DNA of 7,232 nucleotides from a virus (Duplodnaviria > Heunggongvirae > Uroviricota > Caudoviricetes), in IMG/VR virus record IMGVR_UViG_2541047820_000004; one strand, 5' to 3'. Shown here in pieces: positions 1 to 6,926 of the stretch. The translations under genes were made by a program, and so were the position numbers. Every line of letters starts with the position of its first letter. The first letter of the stretch is position 1. Under the pieces are notes generated by a model. It had not been told where the DNA came from and made no database searches. It worked only from the letters and a program-made list of their open reading frames with translations.

Positions 1-423
1 CATCTCACCGGGCGGCGCTTTGAACACGGGGTGACGGACTGTTACACGCTGTTCCGGGATGCTTATCATCTGGCGGGGATTGAGATGCCGGATTTTCATC
101 GCGAGGATGACTGGTGGCGTCACGGTCAGAATCTCTATCTGGATAATCTGGAGGCCACAGGGCTGTATCAGGTGCCGTTGTCATCAGCACAACCGGGCGA
201 TGTGCTGCTGTGCTGTTTTGGTTCATCGGTGCCGAATCATGCCGCCATTTACTGTGGTGATGGCGAGCTGCTGCACCATATTCCTGAACAACTGAGCAAA
301 CGAGAGAGGTATACCGACAAATGGCAGCGACGCACACACTCCCTCTGGCGTCACCGGGCATGGCACGCATCTGCCTTTACGGGGATTTGCAACGATTTGG
401 CCGCCGCATCGATCTTCGTGTGA
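1..423 (+). CDS. K: Tail assembly protein K, 5'-truncated by the window edge (C-terminal NlpC/P60-type peptidase domain)
   Basis: Frame 1 is open from position 1 to TGA at 421-423. The translation (…HGVTDCYTLFRDAYHLAGIEMPDFHREDDWWRHGQNLYLDNLEATGLYQVPLSSAQPGDVLLCCFGSSVPNHAAIYCGDGELLHHIPEQL…) matches my recollection of the lambda gpK C-terminus, with a Cys (DCY) and downstream His residues consistent with an NlpC/P60 Cys-His-His arrangement. The listed ORF start at 31 (GTG) is internal; the true start is upstream of the window. Synteny K-I-J supports the call. Confidence 0.9.
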   Translation, partial: HLTGRRFEHGVTDCYTLFRDAYHLAGIEMPDFHREDDWWRHGQNLYLDNLEATGLYQVPLSSAQPGDVLLCCFGSSVPNHAAIYCGDGELLHHIPEQLSKRERYTDKWQRRTHSLWRHRAWHASAFTGICNDLAAASIFV

Positions 424-992
424 AAACGGGGGCTGAAGCTATCCGGGCGCTGGCCACACAGCTCCCGGCGTTTCGTCAGAAACTGAGCGACGGCTGGTAT
501 CAGGTACGGATTGCCGGGCGGGATGTCAGCACGTCCGGATTAACGGCGCAGTTACATGAGACTCTGCCTGATGGCGCTGTGATTCATATTGTTCCCAGAG
601 TCGCCGGGGCCAAGTCAGGTGGTGTATTCCAGATTGTCCTGGGAGCTGCCGCCATTGCCGGATCATTCTTTACTGCCGGAGCCACCCTTGCAGCATGGGG
701 GGCAGCCATTGGGGCCGGTGGTATGACCGGCATCCTGTTTTCTCTCGGTGCCAGTATGGTGCTCGGTGGTGTGGCGCAGATGCTGGCACCGAAAGCCAGA
801 ACTCCCCGCACACAGACAACGGATAACGGCAAACAGAACACCTATTTTTCCTCACTGGATAACATGGTTGCTCAGGGCAATGTTTTGCCTGTTCTGTACG
901 GTGAAATGCGTGTGGGGTCGCGGGTGGTTTCTCAGGAGATCAGCACGGCAGACGAAGGGGACGGTGGTCAGGTTGTGGTGATTGGTCGCTGA
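321..992 (+). CDS. I: Tail assembly protein I
   Basis: ATG at 321 to TGA at 990-992, 223 aa. The translation (MAATHTLPLASPGMARICLYGDLQRFGRRIDLRVKTGAEAIRALATQLPAF… glycine/alanine-rich hydrophobic centre …QVVVIGR) is essentially that of lambda gpI as I recall it. It overlaps the 3' end of K by 103 nt in a different frame, as in lambda. Confidence 0.92.
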   Translation: MAATHTLPLASPGMARICLYGDLQRFGRRIDLRVKTGAEAIRALATQLPAFRQKLSDGWYQVRIAGRDVSTSGLTAQLHETLPDGAVIHIVPRVAGAKSGGVFQIVLGAAAIAGSFFTAGATLAAWGAAIGAGGMTGILFSLGASMVLGGVAQMLAPKARTPRTQTTDNGKQNTYFSSLDNMVAQGNVLPVLYGEMRVGSRVVSQEISTADEGDGGQVVVIGR

Positions 993-1010
993 TGCAAAAT
1001 GTTTTATGTG

Positions 1011-1035
1011 AAACCGCCTCCGGGCGGTTTTGTCG
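1011..1035 (+). promoter_or_regulatory. Intergenic stem-loop between I and J (8-bp stem aaaccgcc/ggcggttt, loop tccg) followed by a T-rich tract; possible attenuator or RNA-stabilising hairpin
   Basis: Read directly: 1011-1018 aaaccgcc pairs with 1023-1030 ggcggttt, then ttgtcgttt. It lies 18 nt after the I stop and is followed by a GGAG Shine-Dalgarno at 1041-1044 and the J ATG at 1053. Function is inferred; late-operon read-through must pass it. Confidence 0.4.
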
Positions 1036-1052
1036 TTTATGGAGCATGACGA

Positions 1053-4000
1053 ATGGGTAAAGGCAGCAGTAAGGGGCATACCCCGCGCGAAGCGAAGGAT
1101 AACCTGAAATCCACGCAGTTACTGAGTGTGATCGATGCCATCAGCGAAGGGCCGATTGAAGGTCCGGTGGATGGATTAAAAAGCGTGCTGCTGAACAGTA
1201 CACCGGTGCTGGACAGTGAGGGGAATACCAACATCTCCGGTGTCACGGTGGTGTTCCGGGCAGGTGAGCAGGAGCAGACACCGCCGGAGGGATTTGAATC
1301 CTCCGGTTCCGAGACGGTGCTGGGTACGGAAGTGAAATACGACACGCCGATCACCCGGACCATCACGTCTGCAAACATCGACCGTCTGCGCTTTACCTTC
1401 GGTGTGCAGGCACTGGTGGAAACCACCTCAAAGGGTGACCGGAATCCGTCGGAAGTCCGCCTGCTGGTTCAGATACAACGTAACGGTGGCTGGGTGACAG
1501 AAAAAGACATCACCATTAAGGGCAAAACCACGTCGCAGTATCTGGCCTCGGTGGTGGTGGATAACCTGCCGCCGCGACCGTTCAATATCCGGATGCGCAG
1601 GATGACACCGGACAGCACCACAGACCAGCTGCAGAACAAAACGCTCTGGTCGTCATACACCGAAATCATCGATGTGAAACAGTGCTACCCGAACACGGCA
1701 CTGGTCGGCGTGCAGGTGGATTCGGAGCAGTTCGGCAGCCAGCAGGTGAGCCGTAATTATCATCTTCGCGGGCGCATTCTGCAGGTGCCGTCGAACTATA
1801 ACCCGCAGACGCGGCAATACAGCGGTATCTGGGACGGGACGTTTAAACCGGCATACAGCAACAACATGGCCTGGTGTCTGTGGGATATGCTGACCCATCC
1901 GCGCTACGGCATGGGGAAGCGTCTCGGTGCGGCGGATGTGGACAAATGGGCGCTGTATGTCATCGGCCAGAATTGCGACCAGTCAGTGCCGGACGGCTTT
2001 GGCGGCACGGAGCCGCGCATCACCTGTAATGCGTACCTGACCACACAGCGCAAGGCATGGGATGTGCTCAGTGATTTTTGCTCGGCGATGCGCTGTATGC
2101 CGGTATGGAACGGGCAGACGCTGACATTCGTGCAGGACCGACCGTCGGATAAGGTGTGGACCTATAACCGCAGTAATGTGGTGATGCCGGATGATGGCGC
2201 GCCGTTCCGCTACAGTTTCAGCGCCCTGAAGGACCGCCATAATGCCGTTGAGGTGAACTGGATTGACCCGGATAACGGCTGGGAAACGGCAACAGAGCTT
2301 GTGGAGGACACGCAGGCCATTGCCCGTTACGGTCGTAACGTCACGAAGATGGATGCCTTTGGCTGTACCAGCCGGGGGCAGGCACACCGCGCCGGGCTGT
2401 GGCTGATTAAAACGGAGCTGCTGGAAACGCAGACCGTGGACTTCAGCGTGGGCGCAGAAGGGCTTCGCCATGTACCGGGCGATGTCATTGAAATCTGCGA
2501 TGATGACTATGCGGGTATCAGCATCGGCGGGCGCGTGCTGGCGGTGAACAGCCAGGCGCGGACACTGACGCTCGACCGTGAAATCATGCTGTCATCCTCC
2601 GGCACCACGCTGATAAGCCTGGTTGACGGAAATGGCAATCCGGTCAGCGTGGAGGTCCAGTCCGTCACCGACGGCGTGAAGGTGAAAGTGAGCCGTGTTC
2701 CTGACGGCGTTGCCGGATACAGCGTGTGGGGGCTGAAGCTGCCGACGCTGCGCCAGCGCCTGTTCCGCTGTGTGAGTATCCGTGAGAACGATGACGGTAC
2801 GTATGCCATCACTGCCGTGCAGCATGTGCCGGAAAAAGAGGCCATCGTGGATAACGGGGCGTACTTTGACGGCGACCAGAGCGGAACGGTGAACGGTGTC
2901 ACGCCGCCCGCGGTGCAGCACCTGACTGCAGAAGTCACTGCAGACAGCGGGGAATATCAGGTGCTGGCGCGCTGGGATACGCCGAAGGTGGTGAAGGGTG
3001 TGAGCTTTATGCTTCGCCTGACTGTGGCAGCGGATGACGGCAGTGAGCGGCTGGTCAGCACGGCCAGGACGACGGAAACCACATACCGCTTCAGGCAACT
3101 GGCGCTGGGGAACTACAGGCTGACAGTCCGGGCGGTAAATGCGTGGGGGCAGCAGGGCGATCCGGCGTCGGTATCGTTCCGGATTGCCGCACCGGCAGCG
3201 CCGTCGCGGATTGAGCTGACGCCGGGCTATTTTCAGATAACCGCCACGCCGCATCTTGCGGTTTATGATCCGACGGTACAGTTTGAGTTCTGGTTCTCGG
3301 AAAAGCGGATTGCGGATATCAGGCAGGTTGAAACCACAGCCCGCTATCTTGGCACGGCGCTGTACTGGATAGCTGCCAGTATCAATATCAAGCCGGGCCA
3401 TGATTATTATTTTTACATCCGCAGTGTGAACACCGTTGGCAAATCGGCATTTGTGGAGGCTGTTGGCCAGCCGAGTGATGATGCATCCGGCTATCTGGAT
3501 TTTTTCAAAGGAGAGATAGGGAAAACCCATCTGGCTCAGGAGTTGTGGACGCAGATTGATAACGGTCAGCTTGCGCCTGACTTGGCGGAAATCAAAACGT
3601 CCATCACGGATGTCAGTAATGAAATCACGCAGACCGTCAATAAGAAACTGGAAGACCAGAGTGCAGCGATCCAGCAGATACAGAAGGTTCAGGTTGATAC
3701 AAATAATAACCTGAACAGCATGTGGGCTGTGAAGCTGCAGCAGATGCAGGACGGACGCCTTTATATCGCGGGTATTGGTGCCGGTATTGAGAATACCCCT
3801 GACGGTATGCAGAGTCAGGTGCTGCTGGCGGCGGACAGGATTGCGATGATTAATCCTGCGAATGGCAATACAAAGCCGATGTTTGTTGGTCAGGGCGATC
3901 AGATATTTATGAATGAAGTGTTCCTGAAATATCTGACGGCTCCCACCATTACCAGCGGCGGTAATCCTCCGGCATTTTCCCTGACACCGGACGGGCGGCT

Positions 4001-4535
4001 GACGGCGAAAAATGCGGATATCAGCGGTAACGTGAACGCGAACTCCGGGACGCTCAACAATGTCACGATTAATCAGAACTGCCGGATTCTGGGAAAACTG
4101 TCAGCCAACCAGATTGAAGGCGATATTGTTAAAACGGTGGGAAAAGCCTTTCCGAGAAATAGCAGTTATGCCAGCGGTACAATAACGGTCACGGTGTACG
4201 ATGACCAGGCTTTTGACCGTCAGATAGTAATCCCCCCCGTTCTGTTTCGCGGTGGTAAGCATGAAAACTTCAACAGCAACAACCAACAGTCATACTGGTA
4301 TTCAACCTGTAAGCTGCAGGTGCTGAAGAACGGACAGGAAATCTTTCAGCAACCCGCGACGGATGTCAGCAGGGTATTTTCATCAGTCATTGATATGCCT
4401 GCCGGACACGGCCATGTCACCCTGACTTTCAATGTTTCTTCATATGGTGCAAATAACTGGACGCCAACGACCAGTATCAGCGACCTTCTTGTTGTCGTGA
4501 TGAAGAAATCAACAGCCGGTATCAGTATCAGTTGA
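1053..4535 (+). CDS. J: Host specificity protein J (central tail fibre / tip attachment protein), 1160 aa, with a divergent C-terminal receptor-binding region
   Basis: ATG at 1053 preceded by GGAG at 1041-1044; TGA at 4533-4535. The N-terminus ([54 protein letters not shown]…) and about the first 820 aa match lambda gpJ by recall. From about nt 3515 (aa ~821) the sequence diverges, with conserved islands (MWAVK…, [34 protein letters not shown]) and a different extreme C-terminus. Position after K and I is the expected synteny. Confidence 0.95.
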
Positions 4536-4554
4536 ATTTTAAAACCCAAATTCG

Positions 4555-4582
4555 GGCACCAGAAATGGTGCCTTTTTTATTT
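4555..4582 (+). terminator. Rho-independent terminator candidate downstream of J
   Basis: Read directly: stem ggcacc (4555-4560), loop agaaat, stem ggtgcc (4567-4572), immediately followed by ttttttattt (4573-4582). It starts 20 nt after the J stop. Confidence 0.6.
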
Positions 4583-4593
4583 GTGGAGTGAAT

Positions 4594-6651
4594 ATGGCAG
4601 TACAGATTTCAGGTGTGCTGAAAGACGGTGCAGGAAAACCGATACAGAACTGCACCATTCAGCTCAAAGCAAAACGTAACAGCACCACGGTTGTGGTAAA
4701 CACGGTGGCCTCAGAAAATCCGGATGAAGCCGGGCGTTACAGTATGGATGTTGAGTATGGCCAGTACAGCGTTATCCTGCTGGTTGAAGGTTTTCCGCCT
4801 TCACATGCCGGGACCATCACCGTGTATGAAGATTCTAAGCCGGGGACGCTGAATGATTTTCTCGGTGCCATGACGGAAGATGATGTCATGCCGGAGGCAT
4901 TGCGTCGTTTTGAGGTAATGGTGGAGGATGTGGCACGCAACGCTGAAGCCGCCTCTCAGAGCGCAGCGGCAGCAAAGAAATCAGAAACAGCAGCGGCATC
5001 GTCCAGGAACGCGGCGAAAACATCAGAGACGAATGCAGGTAACAGCGCGAAAGCGGCAGCTTCTTCAAAAACAGCCGCACAAAACGCAGCAACAGCGGCA
5101 GAACGTTCAGAGACAAATGCCCGTGCGTCAGAAGAAGCCTCCGCAGACAGTGAAGAGGCTTCCCGCCGTAATGCAGAGTCAGCCGCTGAAAATGCCGGAG
5201 TCGCCACCACAAAAGCGCGGGAGGCTGCAGCAGACGCAACAAAGGCCGGGCAGAAAAAGGATGAGGCTCTGTCGGCAGCGACACGAGCTGAAAAGGCGGC
5301 AGACCGCGCAGAAGCCGCAGCGGAAGTGACTGCAGAGCCCTATGCGAATATAGTGCCGCCGCTGCCTGATGTGTGGATACCGTTTAACGATTCACTGGAT
5401 ATGATTACGGGGTTTTCGCCATCATATAAAAAGATTGTTATTGGTGACGATGAAATAACAGTGCCAGGCGACAAGATTGTTAAGTTTAAACGAGCTTCAA
5501 CAGCAACGTATATCAATAAGTCAGGCTCGTTTGTTGTGGCAGATGTTGATGAAGCCAGATTTGAAAAGTCTGGTTTACTGATAGAAGGGCAACGTACTAA
5601 TAATTTCATTAACAGTAATGCACCAGAAGCATGGAACTTTAATAATAAACGTCTTGATGTAAACAGTAATCTCGATCCATTTGGATTCAGCTATGGTGTT
5701 CTGACGTATAAAGATTCACCTGATACCGGGCCTGTGACGCTCATTTCAACAGGAACAGGTCGGGTTATCTCTGTGGAAAATGGTGACTCTGTTACAATTT
5801 CTGCCCGATTCAAGGGAAACGGAATCAGGGCGAGAATGCGCATATCGAAGCTGAATGATGATGGCGCAGGGAATACTTTTATAGCAGATGCGCTTCTGGA
5901 TTTGAGCAATCTGACATTAAAAAGTGATGTGCTTTCGTCATCTTTCGTAGTGGAAAACAGCGGATGGATATTCTTTCAGTCAACCTATAAATCTGATTCA
6001 TCACAAAATATATATGCCCGAATAGAAATGTATCAACAGGAAGGCAATGAAATTAAGGTCGGTGACAGTATATCAATGGCAACGCCTCAGGTTGAGAAAG
6101 GAACTGCTGCATCATCATTCATCATAACAGGGGGAACACCGGCAACGCGAGCCAGTGATATTGTGACAATCCCATTAAATAAAAACTGGGTGCGAAGGCC
6201 ACTGACAGTACTGACAGAGTGCAGTGTCTCATGGGACGTTATGCCAAATACCACGGGCGCAGCAAGGATATTAAATATTTCCACTACGGGAGACTCAACA
6301 GATATAGCTGACCAGAGTTATATGTATCTTGGTTTTATCTCAAAGGGCTCAAAAGCAATCATCACGAATGGAAAGGGAACTATGGCAGAGATAAAAAGTG
6401 ACATTGCTGTTTCAGGGCGAAAAAACATTATTGGCGGAAGGTTTAAAGAAGACGGGAGTCTGTCTGTAGTGGTAAATGGAAATATCGGTGGTGCATCGGT
6501 TTCGCCTTATAATGATACAAGATATCTTAATGGTTTCATGAATATAGGGGGGCAATCCTCCACCGGAGACAGGCATTTATTTGGACATGTCAGAAATCTG
6601 CGAATCTGGCACAGGGAATTGAATGACAGGCAATTAAAAGAGGCCGTATGA
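4594..6651 (+). CDS. stf: Side tail fibre protein (Stf-like): lambda-Stf-type N-terminal domain, Ala/Ser-rich fibrous shaft, and a distinct AT-rich C-terminal distal domain
   Basis: ATG at 4594 preceded by GGAG at 4585-4588; the listed ORF begins at an in-frame GTG at 4588, two codons upstream. Stop is TGA at 6649-6651. The N-terminus (MAVQISGVLKDGAGKPIQNCTIQLKAKRNSTTVVVNTVASENPDEAGRYSMDVEYGQYSVIL…HAGTITVYEDS.PGTLNDFL) matches my recollection of the lambda Stf N-terminal domain. It is followed by SETNA-type Ala/Ser-rich repeats as in lambda Stf, and from about nt 5340 by a different, lower-GC C-terminal region ending …GHVRNLRIWHRELNDRQLKEAV. Confidence 0.85.
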   Translation: MAVQISGVLKDGAGKPIQNCTIQLKAKRNSTTVVVNTVASENPDEAGRYSMDVEYGQYSVILLVEGFPPSHAGTITVYEDSKPGTLNDFLGAMTEDDVMPEALRRFEVMVEDVARNAEAASQSAAAAKKSETAAASSRNAAKTSETNAGNSAKAAASSKTAAQNAATAAERSETNARASEEASADSEEASRRNAESAAENAGVATTKAREAAADATKAGQKKDEALSAATRAEKAADRAEAAAEVTAEPYANIVPPLPDVWIPFNDSLDMITGFSPSYKKIVIGDDEITVPGDKIVKFKRASTATYINKSGSFVVADVDEARFEKSGLLIEGQRTNNFINSNAPEAWNFNNKRLDVNSNLDPFGFSYGVLTYKDSPDTGPVTLISTGTGRVISVENGDSVTISARFKGNGIRARMRISKLNDDGAGNTFIADALLDLSNLTLKSDVLSSSFVVENSGWIFFQSTYKSDSSQNIYARIEMYQQEGNEIKVGDSISMATPQVEKGTAASSFIITGGTPATRASDIVTIPLNKNWVRRPLTVLTECSVSWDVMPNTTGAARILNISTTGDSTDIADQSYMYLGFISKGSKAIITNGKGTMAEIKSDIAVSGRKNIIGGRFKEDGSLSVVVNGNIGGASVSPYNDTRYLNGFMNIGGQSSTGDRHLFGHVRNLRIWHRELNDRQLKEAV
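4981..5130 (+). repeat. In-frame periodic coding repeats (14-residue periodicity) in the Ala/Ser-rich shaft of the stf-like gene
   Basis: The motif tcagaRac… recurs at 4981 (tcagaaacagcagcggca), 5023 (tcagagacgaatgcaggt) and 5107 (tcagagacaaatgcccgt), at spacings of 42 and 84 nt. These encode SETAAAS / SETNAGN / SETNARA within an alanine-rich low-complexity segment spanning about 4930-5340. Confidence 0.6.
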
Positions 6652-6926
6652 AAGATTTAACTTTGAAGTTTCATGACAAACTGCAGTTTAAGGCCTTCCT
6701 GTCATCTCTTGGCTGGGCGGAAGATGAAGACCTCCAGAATAAACTGTTAGTTGATGAAATTGGTTTCACCTACACAGAAACAGGGGTAACTGAAGAGGGA
6801 GAACCTGTCTGTATCCGGAATGACGGTTATTTTGTCAACATTCGTATTCTTGATGACTTGTTTGATGTTTCTGTATTCTCTGATTATGTCGTGGAGCTGG
6901 AAACACCGCTTCGGGAATGGAGCTGA
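6648..6926 (+). CDS. Hypothetical small acidic protein (92 aa), translationally coupled to stf; possible fibre-associated chaperone or accessory protein, function unknown
   Basis: ATG at 6648-6650 overlaps the stf stop TGA at 6649-6651 (ATGA overlap). AAGAGG sits at 6638-6643, 4 nt upstream of the ATG. The ORF runs to TGA at 6924-6926. The product is rich in Asp/Glu with no obvious hydrophobic segment. I recognise no family; coding status rests on coupling, the Shine-Dalgarno and ORF length. Confidence 0.55.
   Translation: MKDLTLKFHDKLQFKAFLSSLGWAEDEDLQNKLLVDEIGFTYTETGVTEEGEPVCIRNDGYFVNIRILDDLFDVSVFSDYVVELETPLREWS

Follow-up and report, generated by a model that had tools for sequence, protein, structure and literature searches.

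The window, by which we mean the whole analysed stretch of 7,232 nucleotides, spans the last genes of a tail gene row of the lambda type (H-M-L-K-I-J) and the side tail fibre gene that follows it. The 3′ part of K (31–423) and gene I (321–992) precede J (1053–4535, + strand), which encodes a tail-tip attachment or central tail fibre protein of 1160 residues of the phage-21 type. A terminator-like hairpin with a T-run (4554–4583, + strand) lies between J and the side tail fibre gene stf (4594–6651, + strand), and the phage 21 genome is annotated with a terminator at the same place. No lom gene is present between J and stf, and stf is directly 3′ of J; its 685-residue product starts with the ATG at 4594, contains a Pfam phage_tail_N domain at residues 3–133, and has the same ATG called in contigs that are identical to the window. 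Two small open reading frames (6648–6926 and 6939 onward) occupy the right end.

Several NCBI assemblies match the window at 100% identity and extend it on both sides. A full lambda-like head and tail module, from the head genes through J, lies upstream in these contigs, and the downstream region contains sitDCBA followed by the host genes ymgL, ycgX, bluR and bluF, where phage 21 has its icd-side attachment region (att site: PMC12803456). The source of J is a phage-21-like lambdoid prophage of E. coli, with which phage 21 itself shares the absence of lom, the terminator, stf directly downstream of J, the two small open reading frames, sitDCBA and icd-side integration. The lamB-repressing small RNA svsR of icd-integrated NC-SV prophages sits in the cI region, outside the window.

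The product of J belongs to the lambda-type tip attachment protein J family. It scores 2385 bits against NCBIfam NF049904 (lambda_TipJ; cut-off 1950), with residues 1–1160 matching positions 1–1163 of the 1163-position profile, and six Pfam gpJ domains (PF24801, PF13550, PF24421, PF24489, PF09327 and PF12421) are found in the lambda order, all far above their cut-offs. These comprise FNIII-A, the hub (Phage-tail_3), two Ig/FNIII domains, the tail-tip fibre and a C-terminal Ig-like receptor-binding domain. Lambda gpJ (structures 8iyk, 8xcg, 8xci, 8xcj and 8xck) has the same domain order of hub, FNIII-1 and FNIII-2, alpha-helical shaft, beta-prism and Ig-like receptor-binding domain, and all of the domains needed for a lambda-type trigger are present in J.

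Similarity to lambda J (NC_001416; gpJ NP_040600) changes abruptly along the gene. Amino acid identity is 88–100% in each 40-residue block up to residue 800 and falls to 55% at residues 801–840 and 12% at 841–880, where there is a 28-residue insertion; it is then 45–72% at residues 881–960, 95% at 961–1000 and 40–53% at 1001–1155. Nucleotide identity follows the same course, with 87–98% up to nt 3482, 52–73% for 3483–3932, 91% for 3933–4022 and 52–66% for 4023–4532. When a single breakpoint is assumed, a maximum chi-square scan puts it at nt 3461 (chi2 = 586), with 119 differences in 2408 positions to the left (4.9%) and 360 in 973 to the right (37%). Up to about nt 3460 the gene is about 95% identical to lambda J at the nucleotide level and 97% at the amino acid level. 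An initial annotation, made from the letters of the window, had read about 820 residues as lambda-like with a change near nt 3515 (residue 821), a fair estimate that lies about 50 nt downstream of the computed break.

The lambda-like body (1053–3460, + strand; residues 1–803) contains the hub domains, FNIII-1 and FNIII-2, with 4.9% nucleotide and 3% amino acid differences from lambda J and with FNIII-A_GpJ, Phage-tail_3, Ig_J and Ig_J_second all falling within residues 86–818. The breakpoint zone (3461–3515, + strand; residues 804–821), in which identity to lambda in 30-nt steps drops from 0.97 to 0.80, 0.77 and 0.67, coincides with the boundary between FNIII-2 and the alpha-helical shaft. In lambda the shaft starts at residue 809, where the second FNIII domain ends (PMC11101478), and its equivalent in the window protein is likewise residue 809 (nt 3477). 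The shaft of the window protein (3477–3719, + strand; residues 809–889) is 28 residues longer than that of lambda, whose residues 809–861 map to the same interval; in the alignment the extra residues stand opposite gaps in lambda at about residues 837–867 (nt ~3561–3653), and they would make the helical bundle longer. When the shaft is scored for heptads, amphipathic periodicity shows around residues 833–845, and the scoring is otherwise uninformative.

Beyond the shaft is a central straight fibre, or beta-prism (3720–4088, + strand; residues 890–1012, with domain limits carried over from lambda; PMC11101478, PMC10999833). It is a diverged homologue of the lambda fibre with 45–95% amino acid identity, and PF09327 Phage_Tail_Tip matches at residues 872–1000. 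Its distal part contains a conserved junction island (3933–4070, + strand; residues 961–1006, a segment that begins with a 21-residue string and ends in NNVTI), which over 3933–4022 has 91% nucleotide identity to lambda and 84% to phage 21. The codons for I1025 and V1026 (4125–4130, + strand) are at the joint between the fibre and the receptor-binding domain, within the motif GDIVKT (residues 1023–1028) that is the same in phage 21. The Ig-like receptor-binding domain itself (4140–4532, + strand; residues 1030–1160) is of the phage-21 type and matches PF12421 Ig_GpJ_C with E = 7e-38.

The C-terminal 360 residues align throughout with lambda J at 57% identity, and the last ~160 are about 47–53% identical (tblastn E = 3e-34). 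The C-terminal domain is thus predicted from its sequence to be a diverged copy of that of lambda with the same fold. Solved gpJ C-terminal structures (8xcj/8xck/8iyk and 9wca/9wcb) are matched by sequence, the best match being the lambda gpJ chimera A8 (E = 4e-154), with lambda gpJ713 at E = 6e-105. An AlphaFold2 monomer model of residues 801–1160, built from a five-sequence alignment, has a mean pLDDT of 42 and a pTM of 0.34; the helices that it places in the shaft (residues 811–821, 826–836 and 844–887) are unreliable at this low confidence, and the model falls short of what a fold search requires, so the fold assignment rests on the matches to solved structures. The initial annotation had reported only short conserved islands after the break, and a last ~130 residues unlike lambda. 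The islands it quoted are present (MWAVK at residues 890–894 and PAFSL...NNVTI at 973–1006), but both descriptions are overstated, the first because the region aligns over its whole length and the second given the 47–53% identity and the Ig_GpJ_C match.

Base composition shifts along with identity. GC content is 58.7% before the break and 49.2% after it, with GC3 at 71% and 57%, respectively; the drop in GC is milder in lambda's own J, from 58.4% to 53.9%. Two sampled 60-nt stretches given in the initial annotation were reproduced exactly (58.3% at 2401–2460 and 43.3% at 3661–3720). At four-fold degenerate sites the difference from lambda is lowest in the N-terminal part (13%), intermediate in the junction island (30%), and highest in the receptor-binding domain (60%) and the shaft and prism (64%).

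Relative to lambda, J is a recombinant with a lambda-like body and a divergent C-terminal receptor-binding region, as the initial annotation had proposed, and the join is sharp and located at the boundary between FNIII-2 and the shaft. Synonymous divergence rises five-fold and GC3 changes by 14 points, there is a 28-residue indel, and the transition is completed within about 60 nt; taken together, these features indicate that the two parts differ in ancestry, as opposed to a faster rate of protein evolution: the first ~805 residues come from the pool of about 95%-identical genes to which lambda belongs, and the distal fibre (longer shaft, beta-prism and Ig-like receptor-binding domain) is of different ancestry. 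Positive selection is known to act on the receptor-binding regions of phage fibres, and host-range mutations are concentrated in the J C-terminus (PMC11336670, PMC10999833), so that rapid diversifying selection acting in place, without recombination, might be invoked for the C-terminal divergence. That explanation has next to no probability left and is effectively refuted by the differences of 60–64% at four-fold sites in the C-terminal part against 13% in the N-terminal part, by the GC3 shift, by the abruptness of the change at a domain boundary, by the inclusion of an indel in the divergent part, by the presence of the same C-terminal module at 96% nucleotide identity in other phage backgrounds, and by the exchange of the receptor-binding domain alone in the Shigella sonnei protein P0001. 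The pattern of divergence favours recombination over local selection.

The conserved island that immediately precedes the receptor-binding domain (bounded by a 13-residue and a 12-residue string) is a second crossover point in the J family, because three kinds of exchange coincide there. The first is a lambda-like micro-patch at nt 3959–4002, inside otherwise phage-21-type sequence, where J agrees at eleven sites with lambda and not with phage 21. The second is the domain swap in P0001, which has a phage-21-type shaft followed by a different, 1A2-like receptor-binding domain. The third is provided by the Eligo Bioscience chimeras, which are fused at lambda residue 964 and are functional with both the A8 and the 1A2 domains (PMC11338833); this residue maps to window residue 992. 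The 1A2 chimera sequence, from the Nature supplement, was used qualitatively only, with P0001 serving as a clean 1A2-like example.

As judged by sequence comparison, J is an already described allele of the classical coliphage 21. It is identical to the J protein of Escherichia phage 21 (OL657228, CPT_21_21, UMO75436.1) at 1138 of 1160 positions (98%) with no gaps, and shares its length, its 28-residue-longer shaft and its type of receptor-binding domain. Over the last 175 residues the identity is 173/175 (98.9%), compared with 83.4% to A8 and 52.9% to lambda. The 22 substitutions that distinguish the two proteins include two in the receptor-binding region, S1037 and I1060 (G and V, respectively, in phage 21). 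At the DNA level the window is 95.9% identical to phage 21 over nt 1–5526; J itself differs in the lambda-like patch, and over the first ~450 nt of the gene it resembles lambda more closely than phage 21. Lambda gpJ shares about 97% identity over residues 1–805 and 95% in the junction island, whereas its shaft is 28 residues shorter and the distal 340 residues are only 40–70% identical.

The allele is widely distributed. The C-terminal region is present at about 96% nucleotide identity in mEp460, ev017, 1H12 and several lambda-like isolates, and about 1,680 of 5,426 complete E. coli genomes match at least 80% of it, with mixed identities. A protein search with J returned at least 8000 near-identical E. 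coli and Shigella fragments, so the allele is abundant, and the search added no diversity for modelling. Many E. coli lambdoid prophages are defective and partial J fragments are abundant in the database, and J could in principle be a relic that no longer specifies adsorption. We regard this as very unlikely: the reading frame is intact over 1160 residues and aligns gap-free along its whole length with phage 21 J, the contigs identical to the window have a complete lambda-type head and tail gene set upstream, and the exact J protein occurs on at least 16 contigs.

The explanation we favour overall, with reasonable though limited confidence, is a phage-21-like J, recombinant relative to lambda, whose porin is most likely LamB as it is for phage 21. 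LamB is the native receptor of phage 21 (OL657228), which gives no lysis of ΔlamB cells or lawns until it is mutated (bioRxiv 10.1101/2023.04.13.536812; PMC11336670), and by analogy LamB is the probable primary receptor of the window protein, a view we hold with some reserve. The case cannot be argued from lambda itself, as the lambda bottom-loop sequences, which are host-range hot spots, are not conserved in J; the loops of its receptor-binding domain are largely substituted, with indels of -4, +5 and -1 at the lambda hot spots. With loops remodelled in this way, recognition of LamB, if correctly assigned, would be achieved without lambda's contacts. The changes in loop sequence would argue against a lambda-like binding mode, not against use of LamB, because phage 21 has the same loops.

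The initial annotation had taken the divergent C-terminus to mean that a different outer-membrane receptor is probably used, while holding that strictly LamB-dependent adsorption would speak against this. Such dependence is documented for phage 21, the nearest relative, not for this phage itself; with J 98% identical to that of a LamB user the inference of a different receptor is unsupported, and is probably wrong. The literature search gave nothing usable on a classical statement of the phage 21 receptor, on mEp460 or on BASEL lambda-like isolates (Chlobot and others).

Retargeting to another porin by the exchanged C-terminus, for which OmpC is the realistic candidate either instead of or alongside LamB, is clearly the less probable reading but has several observations behind it. 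The receptor-binding domain is equally distant from those of lambda, which uses LamB (46.7%, tblastn), and lambda h434, which uses OmpC (47.0%). The J protein of lambda h434 and phage 434, a classical case of host-range swap by exchange of the J C-terminus (PMC11101478), has the same family membership and architecture as the window protein, but with only about 47% identity in the receptor-binding domain it belongs to another subfamily of that domain. A8 is closer. This chimera (PDB 9wca, 9wcb) delivers DNA through OmpC in ΔlamB cells, and works in a ΔlamB ΔompC strain complemented with ompC (PMC11338833); in 9wcb, A8 gpJ 713 is present together with three OmpC chains. Its receptor-binding domain is of the same subfamily as that of the window, with an identical C-terminal strand and several identical loop segments (an 18-residue segment is identical and a 10-residue segment nearly so). 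However, A8 has lambda's shaft and prism, and it is a documented OmpC user, whereas the phage 21 domain uses LamB. Against OmpC, the last 175 residues of the window protein differ from LamB-using phage 21 at 2 positions and from A8 at 29.

Phage 21 genetics bears on the same question. The single substitution I1025T, at the joint of the beta-prism and the binding domain and outside the contact loops, adds use of OmpC to phage 21, and further changes add OmpF (PMC11336670, Table 1; bioRxiv 10.1101/2023.04.13.536812). Both I1025 and V1026 are unchanged in the window, which argues against OmpC use as the protein stands, as does the failure of wild-type phage 21 to lyse ΔlamB lawns (bioRxiv 10.1101/2023.04.13.536812). 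A latent affinity for OmpC, one mutation away, is nonetheless probably present.

The two residues of the receptor-binding region that separate the window from phage 21 include S1037, located in the segment aligned with the lambda host-range hot spot around residues 1011–1012. A further position separates it from the phage that was tested: the laboratory stock of phage 21 carries G18903A relative to GenBank, which we computed to be E1071K in the receptor-binding domain. The LamB-only stock therefore has K1071, and the window, the GenBank phage 21 sequence and A8 all have E1071. It is conceivable, though rather doubtful, that in wild E. coli the natural phage-21-type domain with E1071 can already use OmpC, or binds both LamB and OmpC, and that restriction to LamB is a property of the E1071K laboratory stock; nothing was found showing that E1071K alters receptor use. 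If it were so, this allele, which is very common among prophages, would lie at a natural boundary between LamB and OmpC specificity, with one to three substitutions setting the receptor.

For the preferred reading, LamB as primary receptor, we infer both receptor and triggering mechanism from the lambda gpJ structures together with the phage 21 genetics, using the domain map and trigger mechanism described for lambda gpJ (PMC11101478). The hub and both FNIII domains would dock J into the tail tip, with three J chains forming the central tail fibre. The bottom loops of the three terminal Ig-like domains would enter a trimeric outer-membrane porin, and binding is expected to spread the Ig-like domains, twist the beta-prism, flip the helical shaft and open the tail tip so that the DNA can be ejected.

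That J genes of lambdoid phages are mosaic is textbook knowledge, and the J allele of the window is already known from a classical phage; E. coli prophages commonly carry it, and structures have been solved for close relatives. Of wider use is the comparison of receptors: phage 21 and lambda share LamB as receptor, so strong divergence of the receptor-binding domain (about 50% identity, with remodelled loops) is not in itself a sign that the receptor has changed, whereas the 83%-identical domain of A8 binds OmpC. Receptors of J proteins should thus be predicted from close relatives that have been characterized by experiment, and not from the distance to lambda. The receptor of so widespread an allele is also relevant to phage-based delivery vectors.

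The side tail fibre departs further from phage 21. The whole stf protein is 62% identical to that of phage 21, and its distal 345 residues (nt 5527–6561) are exchanged, with about 35–40% identity as estimated by eye from the alignment. In the phage collection these residues match nothing at more than 47% identity, and the distal half of stf is the less familiar module of the window.

In the side tail fibre gene stf, the distal half (window 5527–6561, plus strand; approximately residues 312–656) is, on alignment to the stf of phage 21 (GenBank OL657228), a second module swap. The first ~310 residues of the two proteins are nearly identical, whereas the distal part is only ~35–40% identical (as judged by eye from the alignment), giving 62% identity across the entire protein. 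The distal module has no counterpart with more than 47% amino acid identity in a collection of 50,697 phage records. Among complete E. coli genomes, only three match the window over its whole length, at ~97.5%. An NCBIfam GTA_spike_fiber domain lies at stf residues 329–520, together with a weak match to Laminin_G_3 in the distal half. Closer to the N-terminus there is an alanine-, serine- and glutamate-rich low-complexity stretch (AAAKKSETAAASSRNAAKTSETNAG...; window 4930–5330, plus strand; approximately residues 113–246), recognized in the composition profile with a very strong AT skew (+0.56), and which opens long spurious ORFs in other frames.

The short plus-strand interval separating J and stf (window 4536–4593) lacks lom and contains only a terminator-like hairpin (4554–4573) with its T-run and, preceding the stf ATG at 4594, a GGAG ribosome-binding site. 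Phage 21 has the same layout, whereas in lambda lom is present between J and stf.

The J gene itself has further patchiness. A 44 nt lambda-like patch (window 3959–4002, plus strand) lies within the conserved junction upstream of the receptor-binding domain, and 11 of its sites side with lambda against phage 21; the surrounding sequence is otherwise of the phage 21 type, and the patch resembles a short gene-conversion tract. Within its lambda-like body (window 1053–2500) J is patchy as well, with window nt 1053–1500 being nearer to lambda (96–98%, versus 90–94% for phage 21) and nt 1953–2492 nearer to phage 21 (97–100%, versus 92–98% for lambda).

The phage 21 stock used in all published receptor work differs from OL657228 by G18903A, which we translate as an E1071K substitution in the receptor-binding domain; the corresponding codon 1071 of J is at window nt 4263–4265 (plus strand). 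We found no discussion of the effect of this change in the phage 21 receptor papers examined.

In two J proteins from the database the shaft/prism segment is internally duplicated. P0001, a Shigella sonnei protein with a phage-21-type shaft and a 1A2-like receptor-binding domain, has a second partial copy at its start, and in P0002 the residues QQIQKV...MQSQV are repeated. Either artefacts of assembly or gene calling or true tandem duplications in J may account for these repeats.

In contigs whose sequence is identical to that of the window, the iron/manganese ABC transporter genes sitDCBA are located directly after the two small ORFs, as they are in phage 21, and the prophage adjoins ymgL, ycgX, bluR and bluF (region 16272–19697 and onward in contig L004).
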